Shown here: positions 300 through 61,112 of the stretch, piece after piece
Layout: each line of letters starts with the position of its first letter
How positions within the stretch are numbered: position 1 is the first letter of the stretch
Assembly: GCA_964652605.1 (NCBI GenBank)
Contig: CAZZBH010000005.1
Coordinates: 1 to 62,400 of the forward strand
DNA: 62,400 bases
From: an uncultured Planctomycetaceae bacterium
GTDB taxonomy: Bacteria > Planctomycetota > UBA8742 > UBA2392
Direction: 5' to 3'
Program-made: the position numbers and the translations under genes
Notes under the pieces: generated by a model
Database searches by the model: none
Told to the model about the DNA's origin: nothing
The model's input: the letters and a program-made list of their open reading frames with translations, nothing else

Positions 300-2348
300 A
301 TGACTTCTATCAGGCTTTTTGTTCTGGCCGCTGTGCTATGCACGTTGTCTGGTTCTTTGACGGCCCAGACGTGGGATGAAACCGCGGACGGTGGCGGTGA
401 TGCAGGTGATCAAGTGGCCACCGTGCAAGCGGTGGTCGGAACTGGCGCGCTGACTGATATTACAGGTGACAACCCCGCTGTCGGCGACCGCGACCTCTAC
501 CTTATCCGTATAGCCAATCCGAGCGCATTTTCAGCCACTACGAACGTAAATCCTGGCACCAATGTGGACACACAGCTCTGGCTGTTCTCGACCACTGGCG
601 TAGGCATCGCGTTCAATGACGACATCGACATTTCGAACTATCGCTCGACGCTCCCGGTGGGCAATCCGCTGTACAATGCACTTACTCCTGGCGACTACAT
701 CCTCGGCGTTTCACCCTGGTACAACCAGGCGCAGAGTTCAGCGGGTCAAATGTTTCCGACAGCCTACGGAACCGTGGCTGGGCCCACCGGCATCGGCGGC
801 GGTACGAACACTCTGAACGGATGGGTCGTCTCACAGAGTGAGATGGGAACGTACAGGATTACATTGACCGGCTGCGAGTTCGTTTCGCCTCCAAGCGTTC
901 CCGATATGGAAGTTGAGCGGGCGACCATGCCCATTGCCGACGGCGGCAACGACGCGCTGAACGATGTCAGCGTGAATGGGCAGACTTTCACCTACACGAT
1001 CAACAACGTCGGATCCGGCGACCTCAATCTCACCGGCACGCCGCTGGTTGATGTTACGCCGGGCACTGGTGCACCGACGGTCTCCGTCACCGTACAGCCT
1101 GCCACTCCAATCATTCCGGCGGCCATGACGACCTTCGAAATCCAGGTGACCCCCGCGCTAGGCGCGTTCGATTTCACTGTGAGTATCGCCAACAATGACC
1201 CAGCCAAAGACCCATATGACTTCATGGTAACGGGTAACGGCTTCAACCCGAACTTGCCGGCAGAGGCGAGCCCAGCCCCCAGTTCGGTGTTTACGGGCCC
1301 GACGAACGGCCCCTTCACGATGGCGATCGACCCGGGCGCCACGCTTGCCAATGCTGAAATTCAGCTCACGGACGCAGAATCGGACGACGTGTCTCTACTT
1401 TCGGTAACCGAAACGTCAGCTGTGGCTGTCTCCGGCATCGTAGCCCCCACCGCACCGGTGGGCCCGGTGCCTACCCCAGCCGTGGTGATCTTCACAGGCA
1501 CCGCGGACGCGGCCAACGCTCCCGGCAGTTACACATGGGAGATCGTGTTTGAAGACTCCGGCAGTGGCTCTGACGTGACCATGACCGTTGAGATCGTGAT
1601 CAACGACCTGCCGCCTGAGCACGTCATCGAAGACGCCACCGGCGGCGACGGCACCGCGCTTGATCCGTACACGGCAACCTTCACCCAGGGTGATGACGGC
1701 TCCATGAGCATCGACCTGGCATCAGTCAGCGACCCCAACACCGGCCAGCTCATCAACCTGGTTGGCACCACACCGGGCGGCAGCAACCCAGCCGGCGGTG
1801 CCGGGCTGAGTGTCAGCCTGGGCGGTGGGTTCCTGACAGTTACCCCGGCCGGCACTCTGGTTGACGCTGACCGTGGCACGCACACGTTTGACGTTGAGGT
1901 CAGCGACGGCACCAACAGCGTCATCATTGCGCTGGAGATCGAGGTGGTCGGCATCGCGCCCACCTTCACCAGCACACCGGTGACCTCGGCAACGCCGGGC
2001 CAGACCTACACCTACACCGCGACTGCAACCGGCAACCCGGCGCCCACACTCAGTGTGACCAGCGCATTGCCGGCATGGCTGACCTTCAACGCAGGTACAG
2101 GCGTGCTTAGCGGCCAGCCAACCAAGAGCGACGAAAACTCCACCGTCAACGTCACGCTCGAGGCCAGCAACGGCGTTGCGCCGGATGCCACGCAGACCTT
2201 CACCATCAACGTCGGCTCTGCACCAAGCTCCGACAGCGACAGTGACGACGGCGGCTGTGCAACCGGCAGCGGCCTGCCGACATGGCCGATGCTGCTGATC
2301 GGTGCGGGCGTCGGTGCGGCATTGCTGTTGCGCCGCCGCACGGCCTAG
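300..2348 (+). CDS. Secreted cell-surface protein with a pre-peptidase-C-like N-module, choice-of-anchor-D-like and putative-Ig (He_PIG-like) modules, and a Cys-containing C-terminal sorting tag
   Basis: In-frame ATG at 300 within ORF 102..2348, preceded by GGGGAGA. Signal peptide MTSIRLFVLAAVLCTLSGSLTAQ. Motifs ...NNVGSGDLNLTGTPLV... and LPAWLTFNAGTGVLSGQPT. C-terminus is DDGGCATGSG followed by WPMLLIGAGVGAALLL and RRR. Confidence 0.8.
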   Translation: MTSIRLFVLAAVLCTLSGSLTAQTWDETADGGGDAGDQVATVQAVVGTGALTDITGDNPAVGDRDLYLIRIANPSAFSATTNVNPGTNVDTQLWLFSTTGVGIAFNDDIDISNYRSTLPVGNPLYNALTPGDYILGVSPWYNQAQSSAGQMFPTAYGTVAGPTGIGGGTNTLNGWVVSQSEMGTYRITLTGCEFVSPPSVPDMEVERATMPIADGGNDALNDVSVNGQTFTYTINNVGSGDLNLTGTPLVDVTPGTGAPTVSVTVQPATPIIPAAMTTFEIQVTPALGAFDFTVSIANNDPAKDPYDFMVTGNGFNPNLPAEASPAPSSVFTGPTNGPFTMAIDPGATLANAEIQLTDAESDDVSLLSVTETSAVAVSGIVAPTAPVGPVPTPAVVIFTGTADAANAPGSYTWEIVFEDSGSGSDVTMTVEIVINDLPPEHVIEDATGGDGTALDPYTATFTQGDDGSMSIDLASVSDPNTGQLINLVGTTPGGSNPAGGAGLSVSLGGGFLTVTPAGTLVDADRGTHTFDVEVSDGTNSVIIALEIEVVGIAPTFTSTPVTSATPGQTYTYTATATGNPAPTLSVTSALPAWLTFNAGTGVLSGQPTKSDENSTVNVTLEASNGVAPDATQTFTINVGSAPSSDSDSDDGGCATGSGLPTWPMLLIGAGVGAALLLRRRTA

Positions 2349-2370
2349 CTAACGCTACACATGCAAACCA

Positions 2371-2404
2371 AACCGGGGAGGCAACCAAGCCTCCCCGGTT
2401 TCAC
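2371..2404 (+). terminator. Rho-independent terminator
   Basis: Perfect 12-bp stem AACCGGGGAGGC / GCCTCCCCGGTT with loop AACCAA, followed by T-containing TTTCAC, 23 nt after the stop codon. Confidence 0.7.
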
Positions 2405-2510
2405 TATCCGCACATTGCCAACCGTTTCGACGGCTCGCCCACCGCGCTATGATGACTTGCTCGAAACCGCAAGCAGGCTGGGCAGCCCGATCTTGCAGCA
2501 GGAGTAATGA

Positions 2511-5090
2511 ATGAACCTGACCCGATTCGTGAGCATTCTGGCGTTGCTGGCAACTGTTCTGGCCGGTACCGCGTCCGCCCAGTTGACGGGCACGTTCACA
2601 TGCGCCAATGGCAACCCCGGCAGCGCATTTGATTACGGCGACATCGGCGCGTTCTTCGACGCGGTGGAAGCCCAGGGGTTGTCCGGCCCCGTCGTTCTTG
2701 AGGTCTATGATGACGGCGGCGCGTTTACCTCCACCTCAGCTTACGGGATCGGCTTGAACGCTTCGGGCGGGATGGTGGGCATCATCGGCATTTCAGCGAT
2801 CAACACTGTCACGGTTCGCGCCGCTCCTGGTGAGTTTCCGGTCATTCAGGGCTCTGGCGCGATAGCGACGTCCTTCAACCAGTCGGGAACACTGCTGGCG
2901 CAAACCAACTTCGTGACGTTCGAGGGGCTTGAATGCGTCGGTGGCGTGACTTCCGGGATCAGCTTCTATGGCAACCCCCTCAACCACGTGAATGTGATCC
3001 GCTGCAAGGTGCACGGCGTGACAGTGGGCCCCGGCATCAGCCTGTACAGCGACATTGGCGGGCCGCTGATCAACTGCACCATCGAGAACAACGTGGTGTG
3101 GAACTGTGCAGGCACGGCGGCTGGATTCGGCAGCTTCACGCGCGGTGCGCTTGCGATCCGCCGGGCGGACACGACCACGGTGGTCCGCAACAACACTGTA
3201 GTTCACAATGCCGGGCTCAGCGGCAGCGCCGCCTTTGGTTATCTGGGCGGCTCAACGGGTGTTAACACCTTCACCTTTGAAGGGAACATCTTTGTGTGCT
3301 CCACCTCCGGGCTGCCGGTTCTGGATATTGCGTCGTCCTTCGACCCTGTCGGCGCCAACTACAACGTCTATCACGCAACCGGCGGCGCGACGTTTCATTC
3401 AAACACGGCGACGTTTCCAGACTTTGCGGCTTGGCAGGCGTCGTCACGCGACGCGCAAGGCACATCGGCCGACCCGCAGCTCGTGTCGATGGCCGTTGCC
3501 ACTTTTGACTACCACCTTCAGCAGGGCTCGCCGGCCATCGACCGGGTTGTTGGCTCGACACTCAACATCGACGTGGACGGCGACCCGCGCCCCTTTGGCG
3601 CAGCCGTGGATGCAGGCGCAGACGAGATTTCCGGCCCGCCGCCCGAGATGGTGGTCGAGTACAATGCCGTTGCAGTCCCTGATGGCGGCAGCGTTGACAT
3701 CGGCACCGTGACGACCAACGGCGGCCCGTTCACGTTCGTCGCCACGAACATCGGCGCCGGCGATCTGATGCTTACCGGCAACCCGCTGGTCGGTGTCACG
3801 CCCGGCCTGAACTGCGACGCGACAACCGTACTGCAGACACCACCGGCGAACACTCTGATACCCAGCTTCGTGCTTGAACCCTTCGAGATCTTCGTTGACC
3901 CGACAGCGCCGGGGACATTCGAGCTGGTGATTGAGATCAGCAACAACGACTCCCAGCGCAACCCGTACAACTTTACGGTCACCGGCATGGCTGTGCTGCC
4001 GAACCTGCAAGCCTCAGCCTCAACACCCGGAGGCTCGGGTTTCAGCGGCCCGGTCAACGGCCCGTTCACCATGACGGTCGATCCGGGAGCCACGTTGACT
4101 ACCGCCAGTATCGAACTTACCGACCCTGAAAGCGACGACATCACGCTTGTGTCGGTCACGCTACTGACGCCAGCTCTGGCTGGTGTCACGGCACCGTCGC
4201 TGGGCACGCCTGCCCATCCGCGAACCTTGAACTGGACCGGCACGGTAAGTCCCACCAACGCCCCAGGCCCCTATGAGTGGGAGATCGTGTTTTCCGACGC
4301 CGTGAACGGCACGCAGGTGTCAGCCACCGTGTCGATCGCGGTGAACGACCTTCCGCCGACACATGCCATCGCCAGCGCCACGGGCGGCAACGGAAGCCCA
4401 GGCACCCCGTACACCGCACAGTTCATCCATGGCGATACGGCTGCCAGCAGCACCGACATGTGCGCGATCACGGATCCGAATGCATCCCAATTGCTCACAC
4501 TGGTCGCCACCACGCCCGGCGCTGGCAATCCGGCGGGCGGCGCGGGGTTCAGCGTCAGCTTTTCGGGCGGGCTGCTTTCGATTGCGCCTGCAGGCCCGCT
4601 GGTGGTGGCCGATCTCGGTTCGCACAGCTTTGAAGCCGAAATCAGCGACGGCACGCACACGATCAACATTGCGCTTGAGGTCGAGGTGATCGGAACGGCG
4701 CCGGCCTTCACCAGTGCACCAATCGAGGCCGCTACGCCCGGAAGCTTGTACAGCTACACGGTAGCCGCCAACGGAACACCCGCACCGACCGTCACCTTGA
4801 CCAGCGCTCTTCCCGGATGGCTGTCTTTCGACACGGGGACGGGCTTGCTGTCCGGCATACCAACTCGCAGCGACCAGAAGACGTCCGTGAACGTAGCCTT
4901 TCTGGCAACCAACGGCGTCGCACCGGACGCAACGCAGACGTTCACGATCACTGTCGGCGCCGCCGCCTCAACCGGCACTTCGGGCGACTCCGGCTGCTCA
5001 GCCGGCGGTGGATTTCCAGTCTGGCCGCTGCTGATTGTGGGCGCGGGCCTCGGGGTGACACTGTGGTTGCGCCGCCGGGTCCACACTTGA
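2511..5090 (+). CDS. Secreted cell-surface protein with an N-terminal right-handed beta-helix-like region, then the same choice-of-anchor-D / Ig-like / Cys-tag C-terminal half as the upstream gene
   Basis: AGGAG lies 6 nt before the ATG. Signal peptide MNLTRFVSILALLATVLAGTASAQ. Beta-helix-like repeats (NNVVWNCAG, RNNTVVHNAG). The C-terminal ~450 aa is colinear with, and clearly similar to, the 300..2348 product. Tag is GDSGCSAGGG followed by WPLLIVGAGLGVTLWL and RRR. Confidence 0.8.
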   Translation: MNLTRFVSILALLATVLAGTASAQLTGTFTCANGNPGSAFDYGDIGAFFDAVEAQGLSGPVVLEVYDDGGAFTSTSAYGIGLNASGGMVGIIGISAINTVTVRAAPGEFPVIQGSGAIATSFNQSGTLLAQTNFVTFEGLECVGGVTSGISFYGNPLNHVNVIRCKVHGVTVGPGISLYSDIGGPLINCTIENNVVWNCAGTAAGFGSFTRGALAIRRADTTTVVRNNTVVHNAGLSGSAAFGYLGGSTGVNTFTFEGNIFVCSTSGLPVLDIASSFDPVGANYNVYHATGGATFHSNTATFPDFAAWQASSRDAQGTSADPQLVSMAVATFDYHLQQGSPAIDRVVGSTLNIDVDGDPRPFGAAVDAGADEISGPPPEMVVEYNAVAVPDGGSVDIGTVTTNGGPFTFVATNIGAGDLMLTGNPLVGVTPGLNCDATTVLQTPPANTLIPSFVLEPFEIFVDPTAPGTFELVIEISNNDSQRNPYNFTVTGMAVLPNLQASASTPGGSGFSGPVNGPFTMTVDPGATLTTASIELTDPESDDITLVSVTLLTPALAGVTAPSLGTPAHPRTLNWTGTVSPTNAPGPYEWEIVFSDAVNGTQVSATVSIAVNDLPPTHAIASATGGNGSPGTPYTAQFIHGDTAASSTDMCAITDPNASQLLTLVATTPGAGNPAGGAGFSVSFSGGLLSIAPAGPLVVADLGSHSFEAEISDGTHTINIALEVEVIGTAPAFTSAPIEAATPGSLYSYTVAANGTPAPTVTLTSALPGWLSFDTGTGLLSGIPTRSDQKTSVNVAFLATNGVAPDATQTFTITVGAAASTGTSGDSGCSAGGGFPVWPLLIVGAGLGVTLWLRRRVHT

Positions 5091-5143
5091 CTGGGTGAGC
5101 GCTTGAGGCGAAAGTGAACACCTTCACCGGGCGGGAGATGCGC

Positions 5144-5674
5144 ATGAGGCTGGTCGGTCTGATTGCAGTTGTGGCGGTGCTTTGCGGCACTCTCGCCGCG
5201 CAGGAAATTGACGTTCAGCGCCCGGCAGGACAGCCGATCGCAAATGGCTCGCAGGATAATGTCGGCAGCAAGACCGGCTTGGGCGCAATGGTGCTTACGT
5301 ACACTATCATGAACACCGACGTGACTCCGTTGGATCTGATCGGCACCACGCCTGTCACCGCGACGTCGCCAAAGAACATCATCTTTACCCTGACTCAGCC
5401 GGCCTCAAACCAGTTGCAGCAGAACGAGACCACCACGTTTCCCATTGAAATTACGCCTGCAGGCGACGGATCGTTTGCCCTGAATCTGACTATCGCGAAC
5501 AACGACGCCGATGAGGGCAGCTACCTCATCCGCATTCGCGGCAATACCGGCACCGAGAAGAAGGACGATGACGATTGCTCCACGTCTGAGGGCGCACGCG
5601 GCAGCTTTCTGCTTGCTCTGGGCGCGATCTGCGCGGTCGGCGTCGGCCTGCGTCTGCGGCGCTCTCGTGCCTGA
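5144..5674 (+). CDS. Small secreted choice-of-anchor-D-like protein with a Cys-containing C-terminal sorting tag
   Basis: ORF 5114..5674; ATG at 5144 follows GGGAG. Signal peptide MRLVGLIAVVAVLCGTLAAQ. Motif LTIANNDADEGSY parallels SIANNDPAKDPY and EISNNDSQRNPY in the two upstream proteins. C-terminus is DDDDCSTSEG followed by a hydrophobic helix and RLRRSR. The start could instead be 5114 or 5138. Confidence 0.7.
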   Translation: MRLVGLIAVVAVLCGTLAAQEIDVQRPAGQPIANGSQDNVGSKTGLGAMVLTYTIMNTDVTPLDLIGTTPVTATSPKNIIFTLTQPASNQLQQNETTTFPIEITPAGDGSFALNLTIANNDADEGSYLIRIRGNTGTEKKDDDDCSTSEGARGSFLLALGAICAVGVGLRLRRSRA

Positions 5675-5704
5675 ATGCGGCGGCCGGGGCGGTGATCACG
5701 CGCG

Positions 5705-6802
5705 ATGATCGACCACCCTTACATTTCCGATCCTGACTACTCCACCAACGTTGTCGCGTGGTTCGACGGCGGCCTGCACTTTTTCAAGCGAGTGCCCGAG
5801 GGTAGTGACGGCTTTGCGCTGTTCAACGTGTTTCACCTCGCCTACACGCTGATCTTTGTGGCTGCGCTGTGGTGGTGCTATCGCTGGTGGCGGCAGGGGA
5901 CGTTTCGCGTGCGGCGCCGGCAGGTGCTGGACAGCGTGCTTGTGGCAGTGGTCGGCATCATCGTCGGCGGGCGAATTGGCGAGGCTGTGTTCTATCAGCC
6001 GGAATACTTTTTTTCACAGCCGCTGCGGCTCATCACTAATGCGTCAGGTTTCACGATCCACGGGATGATTCTTGGGGTGGTGGTAGTGTTCTGGTTCTGG
6101 GCGCGATGGATCAAACGCCCGTGGTTTCACCTTCTGGACCAGTCGGTTGTGTTTGTCGCGTTCGGTACGCCGCTGGGGCGCATTGCCAACTTCCTGTCGG
6201 GCGACCTGTGGGGACGCGCCAGCGACCTGCCATGGGCGGTGAGGTTTCCACTACGCGGGCCGCTGTTCCGGCGGGTGATGGCAGACGGCGAGGGCGACAC
6301 CTTCGTCGTCGCCAGCGATACCGAAACAGGTGTGCCCTACCTTGAGCCGTGGACGCCTGACCAAGGATACGAGCTGCTGCCTCACGCGCCGTACGAGGCA
6401 TTCCGAATGCACTCTGCCGACAGCGACACGCTGGAACTGGTGCAGATGGTCGCCACCACGCCGCGTCATCCAAGCCAGCTCTATCAGGCATTGGCCGAGG
6501 GCGTCGTATTGCTGGTGATCCTGCTGCTGGTGCGCCGGCGGGCGCGTTTTGTCGGACAGCTGTCGGCTTGGTTTCTGGTTTGCTATGGGGTCCTGCGCAT
6601 GTTCTCGGAGCTGTTTCGGCAGCCTGAACCCGGCTTGGGTTTCATGCTGGGTGCCACGCGCGGGCAACTGTTGAGCCTCGCGATGGTGGTCTGCGGAATC
6701 GTGCTCTTCGTGTGGGTGTACCACAAGAAGCAGCGCATCGATGCCATTGATACCGACGCGCCCAGCCATCGGGCGCCGGAAGCCTCACAACCGGCAGGCT
6801 GA
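5705..6802 (+). CDS. lgt: Prolipoprotein diacylglyceryl transferase (Lgt), longer than the 291-aa E. coli enzyme
   Basis: Family motifs GGRIGE, GRIANFLSGDLWGR and RHPSQLYQALAEGVVLL; the latter two correspond to E. coli GRLGNFINGELWGR and RHPSQLYELLLEGVVLF. Multiple TM helices. There is ~35-40 aa of extra sequence between the GDLWGR and HPSQLY motifs, plus a longer N-terminus. Confidence 0.9.
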   Translation: MIDHPYISDPDYSTNVVAWFDGGLHFFKRVPEGSDGFALFNVFHLAYTLIFVAALWWCYRWWRQGTFRVRRRQVLDSVLVAVVGIIVGGRIGEAVFYQPEYFFSQPLRLITNASGFTIHGMILGVVVVFWFWARWIKRPWFHLLDQSVVFVAFGTPLGRIANFLSGDLWGRASDLPWAVRFPLRGPLFRRVMADGEGDTFVVASDTETGVPYLEPWTPDQGYELLPHAPYEAFRMHSADSDTLELVQMVATTPRHPSQLYQALAEGVVLLVILLLVRRRARFVGQLSAWFLVCYGVLRMFSELFRQPEPGLGFMLGATRGQLLSLAMVVCGIVLFVWVYHKKQRIDAIDTDAPSHRAPEASQPAG

Positions 6803-6836
6803 ACAAGCCTGCCTTTCGTCTCATCGTTTTTTTTTT
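6793..6836 (+). terminator. Probable terminator after lgt
   Basis: 7-bp stem GGCAGGC / GCCTGCC spans the stop codon, followed downstream by a T10 run (6827-6836). Confidence 0.45.
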
Positions 6837-6934
6837 GAGTTCTTTTCCCGCACCGACGCTGGTCGTGTGCTATGGTTATTTTAGGTTTTATGTGTTTTTG
6901 CTGTTCTTTGACTTCGACCAACGAGAGACCTGGC

Positions 6935-9169
6935 ATGCGCGGGTTCATAGTACTGACTGCGATCGCGCTGGTCCTGTGCCTCCCGCACAGCCTTCGAGCC
7001 CATGAAGCGAACATCGCGCCAAGCCTGCTGCGGGTTGCCATGGCGGCCATGGAGAGCAAGGACTGGCGCGCAGAGGCCGACCGCTTTGCTCTTGCAGTCG
7101 ATGAACGCGGGCGAATCCAGGTCGCGCTTGACGCCAATGCCCGCTACCAGACTTGGATAGACGGCACGCAGGTGCGGCCGGCATTGGCGTTTCCGGCCGG
7201 CTTTGACGAATGGCTGGCTGCGCAGTTTTCCGACCTGCAGGTGCTGCCGGAATCCACCCAACGCTACTTCGTGCTCCGCGCGGCACCGGCTGACCTTGTC
7301 GAGCTTGCGGCGCTGTCCGTTGAAGCCGTGAAAACGTCGGCGCTGGTGCCCTACAACCCGGCCCGCACCACCTTCGGTGGCGTGGTCAGCCAGGGCGTGC
7401 CACGAACGCGGGCGACCACATTTCATGACTCCGGAGTGGCTGGGCAGGGAATGGCAATCGGCGTACTCGACCTCGGATTCCGTGGAGTTCAGGGTCGTGT
7501 TGCCGGCGAAATCGGCGCCTATCAAAGCCCTGTCGACCTGCAGCTCAGCGGCCATACACACGGCACGGCATGCGCCGAGATCGTTCGTGACGTAGCCCCA
7601 GGCGCAGAGCTGCACCTGTACCCAGTGTACGAGACAAGTGTGGAAGGGGCCGTGGCGCACGCACTGGCGAACGGCGTGAACATCATGACCGTGTCGCTTG
7701 CCTGGATGGGATACCCCGAGAATGGCCCCGAGTGCGACGCGGCGCGGATGGCCATTTCCAACGGCATGGCCTGGGTCAACTCCAGCGGCAACTGGCGAGA
7801 GCGCATGTACTGGGAGTCTGCCCCGCAGACTGACGCTGTGCGGTTCGGTGGCGATGCCACGTTGAACCAGGTCGTGGCTGTCGGCGGCTTGGTCGAGGTG
7901 GGTTTCAGTTACGAGGCACCGGACGAAAGCTACGCCCGCTATCAGCTTGTGCTGCACGAACGGCGCAACGGCATGACAGAACCGGTGGCGTACGGCAGCC
8001 CCGGCACCTTCTACCAGCTCGTCTCCTATGCATCCGTGCTCGGGGCGAGCTATTTTGTCAGCATTGAGCTGATCACCGACGGCACGCCGGGCCGGTTGCG
8101 GCTTCAGTCCTTCACCAACCGCTTTGAATACTTCACGCAGGAGGGAAGCGCGTCAAACCCCGCAACTGTCCCGGAGGTGATTGCCGTTGGCGCGGTGCAC
8201 CACACGCGCTATGGCAACGACATTGCCACGGCTGCCTACAGCTCCATGGGTGGCGGCGTGTTCAGCCTGGACATCGACGTTTGCGGGCCCACTGGCACGG
8301 ACAGCTTGACGTTCGATGGGGCCTTTCACGGCACCTCGGCAGCTGCTCCGCACGTGGCGGGGTTGCTGGCGCTGCAAGGCAGCCTGCATGGCAACTTGGA
8401 TGTGCTGGCATTGGCGCTGTTGGACGCCGGCCCGCCGGGCTGGGATCCTGCGTTCGGACACGGCCTGGCAAGGCTTTCGGGGCCAGATCTCGGACAACGA
8501 CTTGTGCTGACCCATCCGCTGGCGAGCCGTTTACCAGACGCCGCCGTTGGCCAACCTTATCTGGCCGTCGAGGCACGGGCGATTGGCGGGTCAGGCCAGC
8601 ACACCTACATGGGTGAGAATCTACCGCCGGGGATTGCGATCAACCGGGTTGGCCAAATCGAGGGTACAGCAACCGAAGCCGGCGAATGGACGGCGATCAT
8701 CGGCGCGACAGACGCCGCTTCACGCACTGTGTCACGCCAGTACCGCATTCGCGTGCTGCCCGCGGGCAGCATGCTGATCACCTCTCCAGTGGACGGACAG
8801 TTGCCGTCCGGTACCGTGCACTCGCCTTACACACCGTTGCGGTTTCTGAGCGCGGGCGGCACCGCCTCGTTCAGCCTGAGCTGGGGCGTGCTTCCTCCCG
8901 GACTAAGCCTCTCGTCTTCCGGCGAATTGGTAGGCCATCCGAATGTCGCCGGCGAGTGGGGCTTCAATGTTCGCGCCGTTGCACCTGACGGAGCTGCCCA
9001 TGAACGCGCGTACCTGCTGCGCATCGACGGCCCAAACCCACTGGGAATGCGCTCGTCCTGGAGCGCCTGCGTAGCCACACATACACGGCCGACCGGCTTG
9101 GCGCTGCTTGGCCTGGTTGCGCTGGTGCTGGCTTTGCGCCGCGCCCGCTTTTTTCGAGCATTGATATGA
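6935..9169 (+). CDS. Subtilisin-family (S8) serine peptidase with C-terminal putative-Ig repeats and a Cys-containing C-terminal sorting tag
   Basis: Asp-His-Ser triad contexts GVLDLGF, SGHTHGTACAE and HGTSAAAPHVAGLLAL. Ig-like repeats LPPGIAINRVGQIEGTATEAGEW and LPPGLSLSSSGELVGHPNVAGEW. Signal peptide MRGFIVLTAIALVLCLPHSLRA from the ATG at 6935. C-terminus is SWSACVATH followed by LALLGLVALVLAL and RRAR. Confidence 0.85.
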   Translation: MRGFIVLTAIALVLCLPHSLRAHEANIAPSLLRVAMAAMESKDWRAEADRFALAVDERGRIQVALDANARYQTWIDGTQVRPALAFPAGFDEWLAAQFSDLQVLPESTQRYFVLRAAPADLVELAALSVEAVKTSALVPYNPARTTFGGVVSQGVPRTRATTFHDSGVAGQGMAIGVLDLGFRGVQGRVAGEIGAYQSPVDLQLSGHTHGTACAEIVRDVAPGAELHLYPVYETSVEGAVAHALANGVNIMTVSLAWMGYPENGPECDAARMAISNGMAWVNSSGNWRERMYWESAPQTDAVRFGGDATLNQVVAVGGLVEVGFSYEAPDESYARYQLVLHERRNGMTEPVAYGSPGTFYQLVSYASVLGASYFVSIELITDGTPGRLRLQSFTNRFEYFTQEGSASNPATVPEVIAVGAVHHTRYGNDIATAAYSSMGGGVFSLDIDVCGPTGTDSLTFDGAFHGTSAAAPHVAGLLALQGSLHGNLDVLALALLDAGPPGWDPAFGHGLARLSGPDLGQRLVLTHPLASRLPDAAVGQPYLAVEARAIGGSGQHTYMGENLPPGIAINRVGQIEGTATEAGEWTAIIGATDAASRTVSRQYRIRVLPAGSMLITSPVDGQLPSGTVHSPYTPLRFLSAGGTASFSLSWGVLPPGLSLSSSGELVGHPNVAGEWGFNVRAVAPDGAAHERAYLLRIDGPNPLGMRSSWSACVATHTRPTGLALLGLVALVLALRRARFFRALI

Positions 9170-9208: not shown

Positions 9209-11383
9209 ATGGCCGGAAGGCTGAGTCCGCTCAACCTCGCGCTGATGTTGATCACTGTTCTGGCGCTGATTTTTGGCGCGTGGGGCGTGTTTGGCAACGG
9301 CAGCGAGGCAGGTCGTGCGCCTCTGGCCCTGCCGCAGACCGATCAGATCGACGACCCGGATGCGGGTGCCGCCATGCGCACCGACGCCACCAGGCCGGAC
9401 AGGCACAACCCGCGCATTACCCGCAGCGCTGACGAGCCAGCCAGGCAGGTCTCGGGCGCGAAGGCTGAACTGCAGCCCAAGGCAGCTACAGGGCCCAGCG
9501 ACAAAGGCGACGCCGTCATCGGTGGCGTCGTTCTGCGCGTTGACGCCTCGCCGGCACCCGGCGTCGCAATCACCTGCCGCAACGCTGACCTTGAGTTGCA
9601 ACCGCCTTCGTTTCGCAATGGCGACGTCCAGCAATACGGCGAGCAGGTTCAACAGTTTCTGGACCGCACAGCCGCCGAAACCCGCCGCGCAACAACCGAC
9701 GCCGAGGGCCGGTTTCAGTTCGCCGGGCTTGACCCGACGCTTGCGTATAACCTTTACGCGCAGTCCCCGGACGGCGCGGCTGGCCAGCAGTTGCGTGTGG
9801 CCGCGGGAGACACCACACGGATCCTGCTGAGCTTCGTCGGGCGGTTTCGCGGCAAGGTCGTGAATGCAAATGGCGAGCCGGTGACTACCTTTTCGATCCG
9901 TGTCTGGGCGGCCAACCGTCGCTGGGAGGCACGCACCGAAGAGTTCAACAGCCCGGACGGAACGTTTGCCATGGAAGGCGCCGGTCGCCTGCAACTGGAA
10001 GCTGAAAGCGAAGGCCTTACGCTGCCTGCGCCGATGGACATTGACGCTTCTTCGGATGGCGACGAAATCGTGGTGAGGTTGCAGCCAGCCGCGGTGGTGT
10101 CGGGAGTGGTCACAGACGCGGACCAGAACCCGCTGGGCAATGTGTCTGTTACCCTGGGTCGGCAGAGCAACCAAGGCGGCTGGAATTACTGGAACCAGGA
10201 TCAAGGGCCGCGCGCGACCACGGACTCTCGGGGCCGCTTTCGCCTCGCGGGCCTGCCGCCCGGCGAAACAACGCTGCGCGCTACGATCGGCGACATGAGC
10301 ACCACGAGAACACTTCATCTGGCCGAAGGCAGCAACGATGTTCGCTTTGAGCTGGATGTCGGCGCAGTCGTGGCATTGCGCCTGAGCAATCCGGCCGGTC
10401 AGCCGGTGACGGCGGACTCCATCTGGTTTCATGCGGGCGGGCGCAACTGGTCACAGGGCCAAAGGCTAGCGGCGCGCGAACCGGGACTGGTCGAATTGGC
10501 GGGCCTTGAGCCGGGGACGTACACCGTGACGATCACAGCCGGCGGATATCCGCAGTTGCGATTCTCGCAAGAGTTGCAGCGCGGGCGCAATGAGCTCGCG
10601 CTGTCGCTTTCCAGCAGCGCAATCGTGAAGGGACGGGTCAGTGGCGCATCAGCCGCAGCACTTAGTAATGCTCGCGTGAGGCTTCGCCGTGAGGGCGAGC
10701 AGAACGAATGGAGCGGATGGGGAAGCGGCTTGAACGCGTCCATTGAGCGCGACGGCACATTCAAGCTGGGGCCGGTCGAGCCAGGGCAGTGGGTGTTTGA
10801 GATGACGCACCAGCAGGGCCAGAACCGCGTACTGCACAGCTCCATGCTTCAGTTGGTCGAGGGCGACAATCAGCATGAGTTTAGCGTGGACGCGGGGGCA
10901 ACGCTGATCGTTCGCGTCACGGATCGGCAGGGCAACCCGCTTTCCCGCATTGAAGTGGTAGCGCGAGGGGACCGGGCAACGACCGCACGGACCGATGCGC
11001 AGGGTGTCGCCACGATGGCATTCCTGAGCGTCGGCAGCTACACGATAACGGCATCCGGAGCTGGCATGGCTGCCCGCGACCTTGCCGCGAGCCTGGCCAA
11101 CGGCGAAAACACGTACACGATGGTGCTTCGCGAATCCGACACAGCCAGAATCTCGCGGGTGTACCCGAACTCGCAGGCGGCGCGCGCGGGCATCCAGGAA
11201 GGCGACTTGATTCTGGAGTACAACGGACAGCACGTAACGAGCTGGCAAAGCTTCGTTCAGGCGGCACGGGCAGCACGCGAGGCCGATGACGTGAGCATGG
11301 TTGTGTCGCGCAACGGCGCTCAGTTGACAATCTCTCTCAAAGGCGGCACCGTCGGCATTGAGGGCGTGGACGCGGTCCGTTAG
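9209..11383 (+). CDS. Membrane-anchored protein with repeated carboxypeptidase-regulatory-like (CarboxypepD_reg) domains and a C-terminal PDZ domain
   Basis: N-terminal [23 protein letters not shown]. Repeats such as [20 protein letters not shown]...[18 protein letters not shown]-like segment [29 protein letters not shown]. Confidence 0.7.
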
Positions 11384-26219: not shown

Positions 26220-27814
26220 GTTGCGCCTTGGACAACGCAAACAAGAACCGCCTGCGTAAGCTGGCGGCTGGCAGCCAATGCTGGCTAGCCACGCGCTTAC
26301 GCACGTGGTTCTTGTTTGTGGTTGCGGTTGCGTCGGCAGGGCTAGCGGCACAGGAAGTTCGAGTTGGCAGCAAGGCTTTCAATGAGGGCGTTATCCTTGG
26401 CGAGATTCTTGCGCACCTGGCGCGCGAGTCGGGCGCGCAGGTCTTGCACAAATCTGGCATGGGCGGTACCGGCGTGCTGTGGGCTGCGCTGAGAGTTGGC
26501 GAGATCGACGCCTACGTTGACTACACCGGCACGCTGCTCAAAGAAGCCTACGCCACCGAAGCACCCGCCGATCTGGATGCGTTGCACGCACTGATGAAAC
26601 GGGACGGCCTCGTGCTCGGGCCAGCCGTCGGTTTTGAGAACACATACGCGATCGGAATGCGCGAGGCGCACGCGCAACGCCTTGGCATAGTGACCATCAG
26701 CGACCTTGCGAAGCACCCGGAACTGAAGCTGGGGTTCAGTAACGAGTTCAAGGAGCGCGCTGACGGTTGGCCCGCTGTGCAGGCCGCCTACAAGTTGCCG
26801 CACACAGACGTAACCGGGCTTGAACACTCGCTCGCCTACGAAGCAATGGAAGCCGGTCGCATTGACATCACCGACCTGTACTCAACCGACGCCGAGATCG
26901 AGCAGTACAACCTGCGCGTGCTCCGTGACGACCGCAAGGTCTTCCCCGAATACCAAGCCGTGGTCGTTTACCGCGCGGGCCTCGCGCCGTCGGTGGTGGC
27001 CGCCTTCACGCGACTGCAAGGGCGTATATCTGAGCCGCTGATGATCGGAATGAACGCGGCGGTGAAGATTGACAAGCAGACAGAAGCCGCAGTGGCCGAG
27101 CGCTTTATGCGCGAGGCGCTGCCGCGGCTGGAAGCGGGCGCGGAAGTTGACGCCGCCGAAACGCGCACCGGCGTGCGATCGATGGGCGAGCGCGTGCAAG
27201 ACGCGCTGGCGGAGCTGCCGCGGCTGACACTGGAGCACCTGCTGCTCGTCGGCGTCAGCCTGCTTGCCGGCGTGATTGTCGCCTTGCCGCTGGGTGTGTT
27301 CGCGCAGCGCCGTCGGCGGTTGGGGCAGGTGGTGCTGGGCGTGACGGGCGTGTTGCAGACCATCCCGTCGATCGCGCTGCTGGTGCTGCTGATCCCGCTG
27401 GTGGGGATCGGTTGGTGGCCGGCTGTGATCGCGCTGTTTTTCTATTCGCTGCTGCCGATTGTGCGCAACACGCATGCGGGGCTGTCCGACATCGACGCGC
27501 GCCTGATCGAAAGCGCCAACGCGCTGGGGCTAACAAGCGGCGAGAGGCTGCGGCTGATCGAACTGCCGCTGGCGGCGCGGCCGATTCTCGCGGGCATCAA
27601 GACAGCAGCGGTAATCAACGTAGGCACAGCCACACTGGGCGGCTTCATCGGCGCCGGCGGTTACGGAGAAGCCATCTTCGCCGGCATCCGTCGCCAGGAC
27701 AACGTGCAGATTCTCGAGGGAGCAATCCCAGCCGCACTGCTCGCCATCCTCCTACAACTCGCCTTTGAGCTACTCGAACGCAAAGCCGTCCCGCGGGGCA
27801 TGCAAGCTACTTGA
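26216..27814 (+). CDS. Fused substrate-binding domain + permease of an Opu-type (glycine betaine/choline-like) ABC transporter
   Basis: The N-terminal ~300 aa is OpuAC/OpuBC-like (VRVGSKAFNEGVILGEILA..., DAYVDYTGT, ITDLYSTD). The C-terminal ~220 aa is permease-like (IPSIALLVLLIPL..., EAIFAGI). Confidence 0.8.
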   Translation: MSCALDNANKNRLRKLAAGSQCWLATRLRTWFLFVVAVASAGLAAQEVRVGSKAFNEGVILGEILAHLARESGAQVLHKSGMGGTGVLWAALRVGEIDAYVDYTGTLLKEAYATEAPADLDALHALMKRDGLVLGPAVGFENTYAIGMREAHAQRLGIVTISDLAKHPELKLGFSNEFKERADGWPAVQAAYKLPHTDVTGLEHSLAYEAMEAGRIDITDLYSTDAEIEQYNLRVLRDDRKVFPEYQAVVVYRAGLAPSVVAAFTRLQGRISEPLMIGMNAAVKIDKQTEAAVAERFMREALPRLEAGAEVDAAETRTGVRSMGERVQDALAELPRLTLEHLLLVGVSLLAGVIVALPLGVFAQRRRRLGQVVLGVTGVLQTIPSIALLVLLIPLVGIGWWPAVIALFFYSLLPIVRNTHAGLSDIDARLIESANALGLTSGERLRLIELPLAARPILAGIKTAAVINVGTATLGGFIGAGGYGEAIFAGIRRQDNVQILEGAIPAALLAILLQLAFELLERKAVPRGMQAT

Positions 27815-27828
27815 GCGCACACGGCGCG

Positions 27829-29373
27829 CTACCACCGAACGGGCGTCGCAACTGCTATACGGCCGTTGCGCCATGCGTTTTCCGCCTCGTCACCGAATGC
27901 AGCCAGGTTGTCGCCAGACACCGTGAAACGGCCGCTATCCTTAGCTTGCGCAATCAGGGTCGCGGCTGACAGGTCAATATGCGAAAAGGCTATGTCCACG
28001 CCTTCAAGCTTCATACTCTGCAACACCTGCACCATTCCCAAGGTGATGCGGTCGGTACGACGCAAACTGACCCAGAGCAGACTCTTCGACCCCGCGAGTT
28101 TCCTTAAGCCCGACTCCTGTACCACTTTTCCAACCACGTCGCTGCTCATTTCGGCCAACTCGTGTGCTCGCACACGCCCGATCGCCAGTTGCCGCAACTT
28201 CGTAAAGGCGGCCACTGCTTCCAGGTCTTCATCCGTTATGTTGGCGCAGCCTGACATATCCAGGTATTCAAGATCGGGAAGCTGCCGAAGGTGGTCCATA
28301 GTCGCCAGCCCCCCTCCCCCGAGGGTGGGATGTCCTGCGAGAGACAATCTCCTCAAACCCTTGAGCTCCGGCAATTTGGTCAGATCTCCCAGGCGGTGCC
28401 CGCCCCATTTCATGTTGCCGCCTGTTTCATAGTCGTCGCGCTGAATTCGCCCCTGCCAGAACAACTCCTTCAGGTCTTTCAACTTTGCAAGGCTTTCCAA
28501 CGCCACGAATCCAACTTGGGTGATAAAGGAAAGGTCAAGCGCCACCAACCCAGGCATTCGTTTTACAAGATCCGCTATGCCACGATCATTGACATTGTCG
28601 CTACCTGAAATGTCCAAGCACTCCAACTCGAAATACTCAGCAACGTACTGCAGTTGCTCGTTGCTCTCGAGCCTCACCTTCAAAGCCTTGAGCCCTTTCG
28701 CGCGACTAAGGCACCCTAACACCAAGTTCGTATATTTCGCTTGAGTTTGACACTCGATGCGCTCGACTCCATACTCCTCAAACAACGCGGCGTACTGGGC
28801 CAGCCCTTCGCCTGGGAACGTCATGCTTAGCGCCGTCAGGCGCCCGGTGGACAGGATCTTCCTCAATGCCTCTATAGGAATGGTATGGCCAAAGACTGAC
28901 AGCGAATGCAGGCGTGGGAGCTGCGGAATCTCGTCCAACACCTCGGCATACAGATTACCCATCATCCGTAAAGTCTCGAGCCGCCGCAGCTTTCTCACGG
29001 CCGCCGCAACCTTCTTCAACTCCGTTGCTGTATAAGGTGAACTGTCAGCGTGCGAGTTAGTTCGACTAATCCATAGGTGAGTAACAGTGTCGGCAATGGA
29101 GTCCAATGCTTGAACGAGTTCTGCTGCGCCACTCTCACCGACGAAAACCCACGATCCCGCGGGAACATACTTCTTGCCGTCGCTAGCTGTTGGTAGAACG
29201 CGCTGATCAACCCACCCCTCCGCCGCCTGAGGACTCGCTATACAAAACGGCAGATAATCTACAGCCGGTAGCTCTTCAACCCAAAGCATCGCCGTCAGAA
29301 ATAGAATCACCGGTGAAACCTTCAGCCACTCCACTACTCCGCAACTTCGAACAGCAAACATTCTACATTTCAT
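27829..29373 (-). CDS. Leucine-rich-repeat protein of the cysteine-containing (FBXL/RNI-like) type with an N-terminal hydrophobic anchor; last gene of the low-G+C island
   Basis: Repeats such as LECLDISGSDNVNDRGIADLVKRMPGLVALDLSF, LPDLEYLDMSGCANITDEDLEAVAAFTKLRQLAI and LKGLRRLSLAGHPTL. The ATG at 29373 follows AGGAGAAGG. About 48% G+C in sampled lines. Confidence 0.7.
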   Translation of the reverse strand: MKCRMFAVRSCGVVEWLKVSPVILFLTAMLWVEELPAVDYLPFCIASPQAAEGWVDQRVLPTASDGKKYVPAGSWVFVGESGAAELVQALDSIADTVTHLWISRTNSHADSSPYTATELKKVAAAVRKLRRLETLRMMGNLYAEVLDEIPQLPRLHSLSVFGHTIPIEALRKILSTGRLTALSMTFPGEGLAQYAALFEEYGVERIECQTQAKYTNLVLGCLSRAKGLKALKVRLESNEQLQYVAEYFELECLDISGSDNVNDRGIADLVKRMPGLVALDLSFITQVGFVALESLAKLKDLKELFWQGRIQRDDYETGGNMKWGGHRLGDLTKLPELKGLRRLSLAGHPTLGGGGLATMDHLRQLPDLEYLDMSGCANITDEDLEAVAAFTKLRQLAIGRVRAHELAEMSSDVVGKVVQESGLRKLAGSKSLLWVSLRRTDRITLGMVQVLQSMKLEGVDIAFSHIDLSAATLIAQAKDSGRFTVSGDNLAAFGDEAENAWRNGRIAVATPVRW

Positions 29374-30499
29374 TTTCCTTCTCCTGCGCAAACTTAATCA
29401 GCTTCTCATTGTCCCACTCCAAAATAATACCGGTGAAATCGTCCTTCTTCTTCCACAGCGCATGCCTTCCCAACGCATCCTCATGACTAAACTGAACCGC
29501 AAATGAAGCATACGGAATCATCCCTCCCTCAATTTCCCAATCTCTTGTCTGCGGGCTCCTGAATGCCCTAGACCATACACGGGCAGTAGACCACGCCATG
29601 CTGTACTGCTTGTCCGGGTGCTTGGCTATACACTCCTCACTGGTCTCCTCCACAAGACCAATTCCGCGAATAATGATATCCGTCCGACCCTGACGCATTT
29701 CGTCCCAATATCTGCCTGGTGAGTCGCACCGCGCCATGAACTTCTGATGTTGGGATTCCCGTATGCCGCTCCAATAATAGCGCTCGTTGTTGAGTGGCCC
29801 TTCATCTGGGTAATTGTCGTTGGTCCACGTCGTCCTTCGTGGCACGCGCCGATTCTGGGTGGCCTCGCTCTTCTCTATCTGTAAACCCATTTCATAGGCC
29901 TGATGATCGCCCTGATGAATTCGTGCATGACAGTACGTGAGAAACTTACAATTCCTGTGAAACTCCAAAATAAAAACCATGCCCTCAGCATAGCCCGCCA
30001 AACCACGCTGATCCTTCCGCCATAGCCCCCAAGCCCCCAGCCTAGGCGCGTCGTTGGGAAGTTGAGGGTTCTGAACCCAATTACGCGCCTCAAACCCTTT
30101 CGTACCATACCACTCCCAACGCTTCGTGATGGCATGAATAATAACTTGATCAATAACTCCTATGTTTGGCGCCTCCACGCCCATAACGCGACCACCGACA
30201 TTACGCGAAAACATCGTAGCGTAACACTTGCAAGGCCCTCCAGGAACTTTTAGAAGAATGCCGCCGATCGGACGGTCGTAGGCCGTAGGTTGATGCTGGT
30301 CCACAGCTTTGATCTCAGCAGCCTCGGGGGAAGGCGTTGTGGGATCCTGCGTTGGCACTTCGGGTTCCGACTCGTCTTCCCTTTCGGGCGAAGCAGCCGG
30401 TCCCCGAATCTCTCCTCCCGGCACAGGAAGACCGGGGCGGCCCGGAGGCGTGACACTATCCAAAAACTTCGAGTTCGAGGACCTAGTTCTCTTCGGCAT
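29363..30499 (-). CDS. Hypothetical protein with a ~80-aa Pro/Glu/Ser/Thr-rich disordered N-terminus and a Cys/His-rich core; island gene 3
   Basis: Strong SD (GGAGGGGAGG) precedes the ATG. The start lies 4 nt after the upstream stop. I recognise no family. Cys/His cluster EFHRNCKFLTYCHARIHQGDH and GGPCKCY. Confidence 0.55.
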   Translation of the reverse strand: MPKRTRSSNSKFLDSVTPPGRPGLPVPGGEIRGPAASPEREDESEPEVPTQDPTTPSPEAAEIKAVDQHQPTAYDRPIGGILLKVPGGPCKCYATMFSRNVGGRVMGVEAPNIGVIDQVIIHAITKRWEWYGTKGFEARNWVQNPQLPNDAPRLGAWGLWRKDQRGLAGYAEGMVFILEFHRNCKFLTYCHARIHQGDHQAYEMGLQIEKSEATQNRRVPRRTTWTNDNYPDEGPLNNERYYWSGIRESQHQKFMARCDSPGRYWDEMRQGRTDIIIRGIGLVEETSEECIAKHPDKQYSMAWSTARVWSRAFRSPQTRDWEIEGGMIPYASFAVQFSHEDALGRHALWKKKDDFTGIILEWDNEKLIKFAQEKENEM

Positions 30500-30502
30500 G
30501 TC

Positions 30503-31165
30503 CTACCTCCCCTCCACAACCAATGGTGGAAGCAAGGTTTTCCCAAGCTGGCGCCCGCCGGGTTCCAAATGTCCGGGAGGTTCAATCTCTCGCAAAAAGA
30601 TCGAAGGGTTCCCAGCGCGATGGTCTCCTACGTGGTCCTGGTTCCCACCCACTAAGTTCGCGCGCAAAGACCAATCATTTGGATCAGCACTCATAAACGG
30701 AAATGACAGCTCTTCGCTGACCTTGAATGAGCTATGCATCGACGATGAAACAGGATGGTCAGGTGTTGGTGTTGGTGTTGGTCTTGGTGTTGGTGTCGGT
30801 GTTGGTCTTGGTGTTGGTGTCGGTGTTGGTGTCGGTGTTGGTGTCGGTGTTACTGCCGACAACGAACTAGTCTCGGCTGGAATGGTTTCGCCCTCGGCGG
30901 CAGCATTAGGTTCGGCTGCAGCAAGTCCTCTCGATCCGCCAGGTGAACCATCACCGGCCCCCGACCATTGACCTCCCGGACACCCTAGCGGCACAGGTAC
31001 AGCTTGATTGGGATATAACTGATTCCACAGCCCCTGAGGATACGTGACCTCATTCAGGTGGGCGGGAATAGTTCCATGTGGAGTGTATATAGAACTACCG
31101 GTTTTCGGCAACCGGGACAACAGCACCGTGCACATCTGTGGGTAGCTTTGAGTTAGATACGGCAC
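30503..31165 (-). CDS. Hypothetical low-complexity protein with a (Thr-Pro)n linker; island gene 2
   Basis: ORF with GTG at 31165 (alternative ATG at 31135). Central TPTPTPTPTPTPRPTPTPTPRPTPTPTP. Largely Pro/Gly/Ser/Ala-rich. No recognisable domain. Confidence 0.45.
   Translation of the reverse strand: MPYLTQSYPQMCTVLLSRLPKTGSSIYTPHGTIPAHLNEVTYPQGLWNQLYPNQAVPVPLGCPGGQWSGAGDGSPGGSRGLAAAEPNAAAEGETIPAETSSLSAVTPTPTPTPTPTPTPRPTPTPTPRPTPTPTPDHPVSSSMHSSFKVSEELSFPFMSADPNDWSLRANLVGGNQDHVGDHRAGNPSIFLREIEPPGHLEPGGRQLGKTLLPPLVVEGR
30762..30851. repeat. Hexanucleotide microsatellite (GGTGTY/GGTCTT) x15 encoding (Thr-Pro)n on the minus strand
   Basis: 15 contiguous hexamers: GGTGTT x9, GGTGTC x4, GGTCTT x2. 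Confidence 0.9.
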
Positions 31166-31529
31166 GTCAAACCCCAGTTACCATGTGGCGTCGGTTCCAA
31201 GCTTCAATCGACTATCCTGGCACTGGCACACCGGCGCAACACAAATACACACATCGACTACTTGTAGTACGGACATTCGTCGACCGATTTTCATTGGCAC
31301 TTCGAACCGCCGAAGTTGCTATGTTGCTGTAAGCGCCACGCCCCCTATCCCCTTTATCGAGCTGCTGCGGGGCGTGTATGCTTGGCATCGTAGTAAAGTT
31401 GGGTTTTGGTACATTGGAATAGGCATCCGGCGAAACGACGATCTCTACGCCGCGATCGGGACATCTACCCCCGTTGTTCAACTCCATCTGGCACCCCCAA
31501 CGATTCGATTTGCTGTCTACCTAACAACT

Positions 31530-32492: not shown

Positions 32493-32655
32493 GGTAGCGC
32501 CCTCCTCGCACAGTTGCGTTACAAGATACCTAATTTCACCCCGTCAGCCATCACGTCGCCGTCACACTTTTGTCATATTTGCCGGCAAACGATGACATCC
32601 TACAAGGTGTCGCGGGATGACAGGTCATTCTTGTTATCTGCAGGTTAGTCGGCCG

Positions 32656-37022: not shown

Positions 37023-37181
37023 GTGATGTCTCCGGCTGACATTATAACGGAGTCTCTGCCGCAATGCCAATTGCCCACCGGCAATCAAACGCCTGATCGG
37101 GCGCCATTGTTTCATGCCTCGAGATTGCGCCAACCCGCACGTCAGCGGAGCGTACCAACAGCGGGCCACCCGGAGACTGTC

Positions 37182-61021: not shown

Positions 61022-61112
<91 letters not shown>

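Follow-up and report, generated by a model that had tools for sequence, protein, structure and literature searches.

Organization of the locus

The 62,400 nt analyzed here (hereafter the window) belong to contig CAZZBH010000005.1 of assembly GCA_964652605.1, from an uncultured Planctomycetota lineage. Close to the beginning of the window, four genes encode secreted proteins that carry the same type of C-terminal tail, in which a Cys is followed by a hydrophobic helix and an Arg cluster, and among these genes lies lgt, encoding the phosphatidylglycerol:prolipoprotein diacylglyceryl transferase (Lgt). A first-pass annotation had described the four tails, likened them to the MYXO-CTERM sorting signal and considered the genome as apparently non-myxobacterial. 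The nearest relatives of the Lgt protein are in agreement with this last point: those at 58-73% identity all come from uncultured Planctomycetota metagenome-assembled genomes (MAGs), and the next ones, at 36-45%, from Planctomycetaceae-labelled MAGs.

The four open reading frames (ORFs) were found with exactly the coordinates, the + strand and the C-termini given by that annotation. Tagged protein 1 (682 aa, positions 300-2348) is composed of a signal peptide, an N-terminal domain of the DVUA0089/FDP family (NF038127, 30 bits for a cutoff of 29), Ig-like repeats including He_PIG (E = 1.6e-10), an acidic and Ser-rich spacer, the Cys, the helix and a terminal RRRTA. Tagged protein 2 (859 aa, 2511-5090) has a signal peptide, a beta-helix-like N-terminal region with a choice-of-anchor Q domain (NF041518, 31.4 bits for a cutoff of 25), He_PIG and a tail ending in RRRVHT. 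The C-terminal 490 residues of these two proteins, tail included, share 52% identity; since the proteins are paralogues, their tails are not independent of each other. Tagged protein 3 is small (about 176-186 aa, 5114-5674), with a signal peptide, a single VesB/HYDIN-like Ig beta-sandwich, a Lys/Asp-rich disordered linker, Cys155, the helix and RLRRSRA. Its match to choice-of-anchor D is weak and under the cutoff, and a homology search with it returned five close orthologues. The AlphaFold2 (AF2) model of protein 3 comprises a signal helix, a confident beta-sandwich, the Cys within a disordered linker and a terminal helix, and the top PDB fold match of the beta-sandwich is the Ig domain of Vibrio cholerae VesB (4lk4), which precedes the GlyGly-CTERM tag of that protease. 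Tagged protein 4 (744 aa, 6872-9169, with a likely start at 6935) is an S8 subtilase, as the first-pass annotation had recognized: the Peptidase_S8 match (E = 1.4e-11) contains an intact D179/H209/S468 triad, between the signal peptide and two He_PIG domains (2e-13), the Cys, the helix and RRARFFRALI.

All four N-termini resemble signal peptides, also as previously annotated; they were judged by eye from the sequence, not by a predictor, and show an AxA-type site and no lipobox (a slash marks the putative cleavage): MTSIRLFVLAAVLCTLSGSLTA/Q, MNLTRFVSILALLATVLAGTASA/Q, MRLVGLIAVVAVLCGTLAA/Q and MRGFIVLTAIALVLCLPHSLRA/H for proteins 1 to 4. The codons of the tag Cys are located at 2256-2258, 4995-4997, 5576-5578 and 9068-9070, respectively. 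The GC content at third codon positions of the tagged ORFs is 0.71-0.76 for an overall GC content of 0.62, and together with the Pfam and NCBIfam domains this indicates that they are real genes. We propose that the passengers, namely adhesin-like Ig/He_PIG proteins and a subtilase, are exported to the surface or envelope. Passengers of the choice-of-anchor Q/D, He_PIG and VesB-like Ig types typically accompany C-terminal anchors, which supports the sorting-signal reading.

The lgt gene (5705-6802, +), sited between tagged proteins 3 and 4, had been overlooked in the first-pass annotation. It encodes a long-form enzyme of 365 aa, with 151.8 bits against TIGR00544 (equivalog cutoff 118.9) and an E-value of 2e-47 against PF01790. 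The residues D129, R143, N146, G154, H196, Y235, R239, E243 and R246 of Escherichia coli Lgt (5azb) are conserved in the window protein, and the equivalents of these nine catalytic residues are invariant in 41 homologues. The AF2 model (pLDDT 90.5) has 5azb as its sole PDB match. Equivalog score, catalytic residues and predicted fold together point to a real and probably active enzyme. Compared with the E. coli enzyme, whose alignment begins at query residue 38, the window Lgt possesses an N-terminal beta extension (WFDGGLHFF) and an insertion of ~65 residues (about 185-251), predicted to fold into an ordered beta-domain of six strands located in the periplasmic head. This insertion was considered as an adaptation specific to the linkage with tagged genes and rejected as such, the long form being also present in loci L016 and L028, where lgt has no tagged neighbours. 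These two loci, together with a classical lipoprotein precursor encoded in the window (43921-44532, +; MRTTLLALLACWLAGC..., lipobox LAGC), favor the view that the window lgt is most likely the ordinary housekeeping copy of the genome and not a dedicated paralogue; the same precursor indicates that the organism also has ordinary Lgt substrates.

A terminator-like hairpin (6793-6813, +; 8-bp stem with 6 G-C pairs and a T-rich tail) overlaps the lgt stop codon. It is the top-ranked site of the region, where the total number of such sites does not exceed the shuffled expectation, and as weak evidence it is suggestive of the end of a transcription unit comprising protein 2, protein 3 and lgt.

A conserved cysteine-containing tail

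To find such tails, the 344 window ORFs of at least 60 aa were run through a detector that required a hydrophobic window without charged residues close to the C-terminus and, after it, two or more R/K residues. It retained only the four tagged proteins, all encoded within 9 kb, and FtsW/RodA, which has no Cys. As a control, the 1,163 ORFs of 619 kb of unrelated metagenomic DNA were examined: four of them (0.3%) were flagged by the detector and none, at E < 0.7, by a hidden Markov model (HMM) of the family. A lineage tail HMM built from the tails of the relatives only was searched against the same 344 window ORFs, and proteins 3, 1 and 2 ranked first to third, with 56.9 bits (E = 3e-17), 22.0 bits (2.4e-6) and 16.8 bits (1e-4), respectively.

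The window and 20 related loci together yielded 38 non-redundant tails. All 38, the four window tails included, contain the invariant Cys, within a core that reads D-x-G-C-S-T: Asp occupies position -3 in 23 tails and Gly position -1 in 24, Ser/Ala position +1 in 37 and Thr/Ala position +2 in 34. Counted from the Cys, the hydrophobic stretch (14-19 residues) begins after 6-10 residues and the Arg cluster after 23-26, and the protein ends after 29-33. The helices contain no charged residues, and a Pro is present at the helix start in window tails 1 and 2 (LPTWPMLL and FPVWPLL). A second signature Cys was observed in a single related tail (L026, 553-2961, GCTMGC). Two subtypes can be distinguished, the large adhesin-like proteins having poly-Gly followed by (D/S)(D/G)GCST and the small protein a Lys/Asp/Glu-rich run followed by DDCST. 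Among the large tagged paralogues within a genome, as seen in L001, L005, L010 and L015, the tails are identical or nearly so and the passenger domains differ; L015 and L001 have in common the tail CSTDSGNSSWLVLFAALAGLGFALRLRKSRA. Such near-identity within a genome points to a recent duplication, to gene conversion or to selection for a fit with one processing machinery. In the control DNA, a 616-aa protein of a high-GC, probably myxobacterial contig (L069, 1900-3750, +) ends with GGCSTSGSTGG, a helix and RRRR, and the GCST core may thus not be unique to planctomycetes.

Among curated models, TIGR03901 (MYXO-CTERM; version TIGR03901.2, curated cutoff 20 bits) is the dominant match of the tail family, with 26 of the 38 tails and a best E-value of 1.2e-6. 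Window tails 1 to 4 score 15.4, 16.5, 6.9 and 16.2 bits, and TIGR03901 is the top CTERM-type model for tails 1, 2 and 4. Four of ten related tails pass the cutoff (24.6, 25.2, 22.5 and 21.1 bits) and one more reaches 19.6 bits, so that the family straddles the cutoff, with the window tails below it. One Planctomycetota protein with such a tail has already been named 'MYXO-CTERM sorting domain-containing protein' by NCBI. The likeness to MYXO-CTERM advanced in the first-pass annotation is thus strengthened, though the window tails themselves stay under the threshold.

The other tag classes were considered and rejected. For PEP-CTERM, no PEP motif is present, TIGR02595 gives a weak match to one of the 38 tails (E = 0.059), window tail 1 is under its cutoff and no exosortase is encoded nearby. 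For GlyGly-CTERM, no tail matches the model at E <= 1, no GlyGly motif is found and no rhomboid is encoded in the window or the related loci. For JDVT-CTERM, four of the 38 tails weakly match NF033191 (best 15.6 bits for a cutoff of 27), without a DP motif or an adjacent CPBP gene. For LPXTG/sortase, 11 of the 38 tails give weak compositional matches to TIGR01167 and none has the LPXTG motif.

Two broader searches with the tail were also performed. A tail-profile search of 5.8 billion proteins gave one match at E < 1e-3, a 46-residue profile being too short to reach significance at that size, so that this search is uninformative on the size of the family. In a tail-based pattern search of metagenomes, none of the 600 pattern matches was upheld by tblastn.

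Conserved linkage of the tagged genes with lgt

In the window, 23 nt separate the genes of proteins 2 and 3 and 30 nt those of protein 3 and Lgt, with tagged genes on both sides of lgt. A tagged gene is found at 2 kb or less from lgt in the window, in all 13 main-clade loci with upstream flank, in the four sister-clade loci and in L026/L027. In the main clade, the orthologue of protein 3 is encoded directly upstream of lgt on the same strand (13/13 loci with upstream DNA), and one to four large tagged proteins are encoded farther upstream. In the sister clade (L023, L024, L025 and L029; Lgt 45-53% identical), a tagged He_PIG protein is encoded directly upstream and/or a tagged GEVED/VesB-like-Ig protein 1.7 kb downstream. 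In L026/L027, whose Lgt is 36% identical, 62 bp separate lgt from the end of an upstream gene for a tagged He_PIG protein of 1239 aa, and the downstream neighbours are different (DsbH, CysNC, radical SAM and SHMT). Loci differ in how many tagged genes they have and in which ones, and the tagged S8 gene next to lgt occurs in the window alone, with no counterpart found in related loci L001-L022. This variation indicates that tagged genes keep accumulating at the lgt locus. No tagged neighbour of lgt was found on L017, a short contig, or in any of seven non-planctomycete Lgt loci.

Other genes recur in these neighborhoods. The gene following protein 4 (9209-11383, +) encodes a protein with an N-terminal membrane anchor and five CarboxypepD_reg beta-sandwich repeats, ending in a PDZ domain. 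Genes for proteins of this type also follow lgt in 13 main-clade loci; sister-clade loci (L023-L025 and L029) have one or two copies downstream of lgt, and the L026/L027 context has none. As PDZ domains bind C-terminal peptides, it is conceivable that this protein handles the tagged proteins. A helix-turn-helix (HTH) protein of 503-525 aa, with weak HTH_3/CI-repressor matches and no other family, is encoded beside lgt and the tagged genes, always on the - strand, in L023 (11065-12576), L024 (11077-12648), L025 (2789-4309), L029 (5996-7516) and L026 (4497-6074), and is absent from the clade of the window. Thiol-redox genes were also observed beside lgt in two remote lineages of planctomycetes, for a DsbD-type membrane protein in L017 (3357-4691, -) and a DsbH-like thioredoxin in L026 (11744-13768, +); their products could keep the periplasmic Cys reduced, or their presence could be a coincidence.

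Comparison with known sorting systems

MYXO-CTERM has been described as restricted to Myxococcota and Bradymonadales and called 'myxobacteria-specific' (10.1101/2023.06.07.544157; PMC11980579). The CPBP intramembrane protease MrtX requires the conserved cysteines in order to cut MYXO-CTERM, and works in E. coli; after this cleavage, the protein is displayed through the type II secretion system, the Cys being presumed to be lipidated beforehand (PMC11980579). The Cys acyltransferase 'remains unidentified' according to the same work; given that MrtX works in E. coli, Lgt is put forward there as the 'leading candidate', even though the tag lacks a lipobox and has an inverted topology (PMC11980579). 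For tags of this kind, Haft pointed out the need for lineage-specific models and curator review (10.1101/2023.06.07.544157). In the literature searched, no report links MYXO-CTERM with Planctomycetota, and a single mBio paper connects myxosortase with Lgt. A linkage of the Myxococcota tags with lgt is not mentioned in 10.1101/2023.06.07.544157 or PMC11980579, the comparison covering the texts of these papers and not the Myxococcota genomes.

The planctomycete tag resembles the MYXO-CTERM/myxosortase system (MrtX/MrtC/MrtP) by its C-terminal tripartite tail with an invariant signature Cys, a Gly-rich context, a helix and an Arg cluster, by its top curated HMM, and in that a genome encodes several tagged proteins, adhesins and proteases among them; by analogy, its Cys may also be lipidated before cleavage. 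It differs by its phylum, which lies outside the published range of MYXO-CTERM, by a single Cys in D-x-G-C-S-T where MYXO-CTERM frequently has GCGC, and by the polar spacer of 6-10 residues between Cys and helix, with the Pro at the helix start in two window tails. In addition, the window tails do not reach the cutoff, the planctomycete tagged genes are grouped around lgt, and no cognate myxosortase (CPBP core, NF040914) was found in the window or in ~27 related loci.

The comparison with the Lgt-LspA lipoprotein pathway shows both a catalytically intact-looking Lgt and, according to the predicted topology, a target Cys at the periplasmic face beside a membrane helix. The small [SA][TA] residues on the membrane-proximal side of the tag Cys would mirror the -1/-2 positions of the lipobox ([GAS], [ASTVI]). 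Unlike classical lipoproteins, the tag has its helix C-terminal to the Cys, no Leu-rich lipobox and a polar Cys-helix spacer, and LspA, which cuts on the N-terminal side of the Cys, could not yield a C-terminal lipid anchor. The GlyGly-CTERM/rhombosortase system of V. cholerae VesB also involves a secreted serine protease and Ig-domain proteins bearing a tripartite C-terminal tag, with surface retention via a lipid as the outcome. The planctomycete tag differs from it by its invariant Cys and by the lack of a GlyGly motif, a model match and a nearby rhomboid. The JDVT, Synerg and CGP tags are Cys-containing and tripartite as well, with predicted CPBP-type cleavage after Cys modification, and the JDVT enzyme and target are encoded side by side; unlike them, the planctomycete tag has no DP motif, in-helix Pro or GP motif, respectively, and its neighbour is Lgt and not a CPBP protease.

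A proposed pathway and its alternatives

Taken together, these data lead us to propose that the four tails represent a planctomycete lineage-specific Cys-type tripartite sorting signal, of which MYXO-CTERM is the prototype. It is highly probable that the tails are genuine sorting or anchor signals of the MYXO-CTERM type. The modification of the tag Cys by Lgt is a plausible proposal that stays slightly short of even odds, and the pathway as a whole, in the form given below, has at best one chance in two.

In this pathway, the protein would be exported by the Sec system by means of its N-terminal type I signal peptide. The C-terminal helix would then hold it in the cytoplasmic membrane with the Arg cluster on the cytoplasmic side, a topology that would bring the invariant Cys, which lies within a flexible linker rich in Gly, Asp and Lys and 6-10 residues away from the helix, to the periplasmic face. 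The Lgt encoded in the cluster would diacylglycerylate the Cys thiol, a step suggested by the conserved gene linkage and by the published hypothesis. By analogy with the known systems, the helix would then be removed by an intramembrane protease whose gene lies elsewhere, most plausibly a myxosortase-like enzyme of the CPBP type, cutting distal to the lipidated Cys. Also by analogy, the protein, anchored by its C-terminal lipid, would be transferred to the cell surface, possibly along a route resembling type II secretion.

A more general and rather doubtful proposal is that Lgt is a dual-purpose enzyme, which would act on N-terminal lipoboxes and also on the invariant Cys of inverted C-terminal tags by reading a mirrored C-[SA]-[TA] on a flexible spacer. 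The substrate genes would have been recruited beside lgt, possibly in the same operon, and Lgt would supply the missing first enzyme of a MYXO-CTERM-type pathway and extend this pathway to a second phylum. In a bolder form, the tagged substrates may be docked with the help of the additional beta-domain that the long-form Lgt of planctomycetes has in the periplasm.

Should the link prove functional, it would reveal how a widespread surface-anchoring route begins and would broaden the substrate range of Lgt, an essential and drug-targeted enzyme. The elements new here are a clearly related Cys-type tag family in Planctomycetota and a conserved gene-neighborhood link of such tags with lgt, bearing on the candidacy of Lgt for the Cys modification, a hypothesis hitherto drawn from a heterologous E. 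coli result. Co-occurrence (phylogenetic) profiling is weak for implicating Lgt because this enzyme is nearly universal. The 186-aa tagged protein and the adjacent lgt constitute a compact pair for a direct biochemical test.

Several observations weigh against the proposed Lgt-dependent pathway. The tag contains no lipobox, and its predicted topology is inverted compared with the known Lgt substrates. What we observed is the architecture and conservation of the tag, an Lgt that is identified as such and apparently intact, and the conserved adjacency of the two, and it is from these that we infer every enzymatic step. All four window tails are under the 20-bit cutoff of TIGR03901, and the tail of the S8 protease was not recovered from the 344 window ORFs by the lineage tail HMM. 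The tail architecture that the first-pass annotation had seen as shared is therefore common to the four proteins as a layout, without detectable homology of the S8 tail to the lineage tag.

The processing enzyme and the linkage are the other two weak points. No gene for a CPBP, rhomboid or exosortase protein was found in the 62.4-kb window, where the first-pass annotation had likewise seen no sorting protease, or in ~27 related loci. For this search, all multi-transmembrane and unannotated window proteins were scanned with Pfam and NCBIfam, a CPBP motif was looked for and the multi-transmembrane ORFs of the ~27 loci were inventoried; this turned up only Lgt, Bax1-I, ABC permeases, MscS, NuoA, FtsW/RodA and DsbD. 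The CarboxypepD_reg/PDZ neighbour was rejected as a candidate sorting protease, as it has no protease domain. Concerning the linkage, the main clade is collinear over ~20 kb (PDZ protein, methyltransferase, nuoCBA, der and trpS), and because the whole neighborhood is conserved its linkage count largely reflects common descent. L026/L027 are not fully independent of the sister clade, since the HTH protein is common to both, and the truly independent observations of linkage are few, about two or three. Moreover, L016 and L028, with a long-form Lgt at 39% identity, have no tagged neighbour. Finally, P0121, a tagged protein found via its tail and not via Lgt, is encoded beside a Gld-like ABC transporter, and the 7 kb that follow contain no lgt, indicating that the tag is used beyond the lgt locus.

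Part of these observations would be explained if the tag were a genuine cleaved signal processed without Lgt, by another transferase (e.g., a prenyl- or acyltransferase) or by a one-step sortase-like enzyme encoded elsewhere, the adjacency of lgt being an accident or a consequence of the co-expression of envelope genes. This alternative survives best and we regard it as unlikely. P0121, located away from lgt, and the small effective number of independent linkage observations are in its favor, as are the lipobox and opposite topology of the known Lgt substrates (PMC11980579) and the use of prenylation by CAAX-type systems. It does not account for the persistence of the linkage where most other synteny is lost (L026/L027), nor for its immediate and same-strand character, with gaps of 30-100 nt, and no other transferase recurs in the examined neighborhoods. 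MrtX processing, moreover, works in E. coli, which has Lgt without a dedicated partner, and the PEP-CTERM, GlyGly-CTERM and LPXTG signatures are absent from the tails.

Less probable again is that the tails are plain C-terminal membrane anchors facing the periplasm, whose helix is kept without cleavage or lipidation, with a Cys serving another role, such as a disulfide or metal contact, and an lgt adjacency that is simply inherited. In favor of this reading, the tag has no lipobox and no processing enzyme was found encoded near any cluster examined; the broad collinearity of the main-clade neighborhood and the long-form Lgt of L016/L028 without tagged neighbours can be read in the same way. 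A plain anchor would not need, however, an invariant Cys at a fixed spacing followed by small +1/+2 residues across lineages whose Lgt is only 36% identical, and the model that the tails match derives from tags whose cleavage is established. The adhesin, protease and 'choice-of-anchor' passengers are expected at the cell surface and not in the periplasm, and the tagged genes remain beside lgt even as their number varies. As for a chance or compositional artefact of high-GC ORFs with hydrophobic and Arg-rich ends, for which the weak HMM scores of short low-complexity tails and the weak matches of several of them to LPXTG-anchor models by helix and Arg composition could be invoked, it is effectively refuted by the restriction of the tail to 4 of 344 ORFs within 9 kb, the 0.3% control rate, the leave-out HMM E-values down to 3e-17 and the conservation of the tails in orthologues across ~20 genomes.

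Other features of the window

Farther along the window, a 354-aa protein with Secretin_N and weak GspD N-terminal domains and no secretin C-domain (37023-38087, +) is followed by two 'TPR end-of-group' proteins, and these genes (37023-41033, +) may belong to a module for secretion or one related to pili. The 354-aa protein is the sole feature observed that could be connected with a type II secretion system. The segment from about 27800 to 32500 has a GC content of 0.53-0.54, compared with about 0.62, and a strongly negative GC skew; it encodes a leucine-rich repeat protein (27829-29391, -) and several ORFs of no family, and looks like acquired DNA. The sole RNA gene detected in the window is a tRNA-Ser with the anticodon TGA (61023-61112, -).

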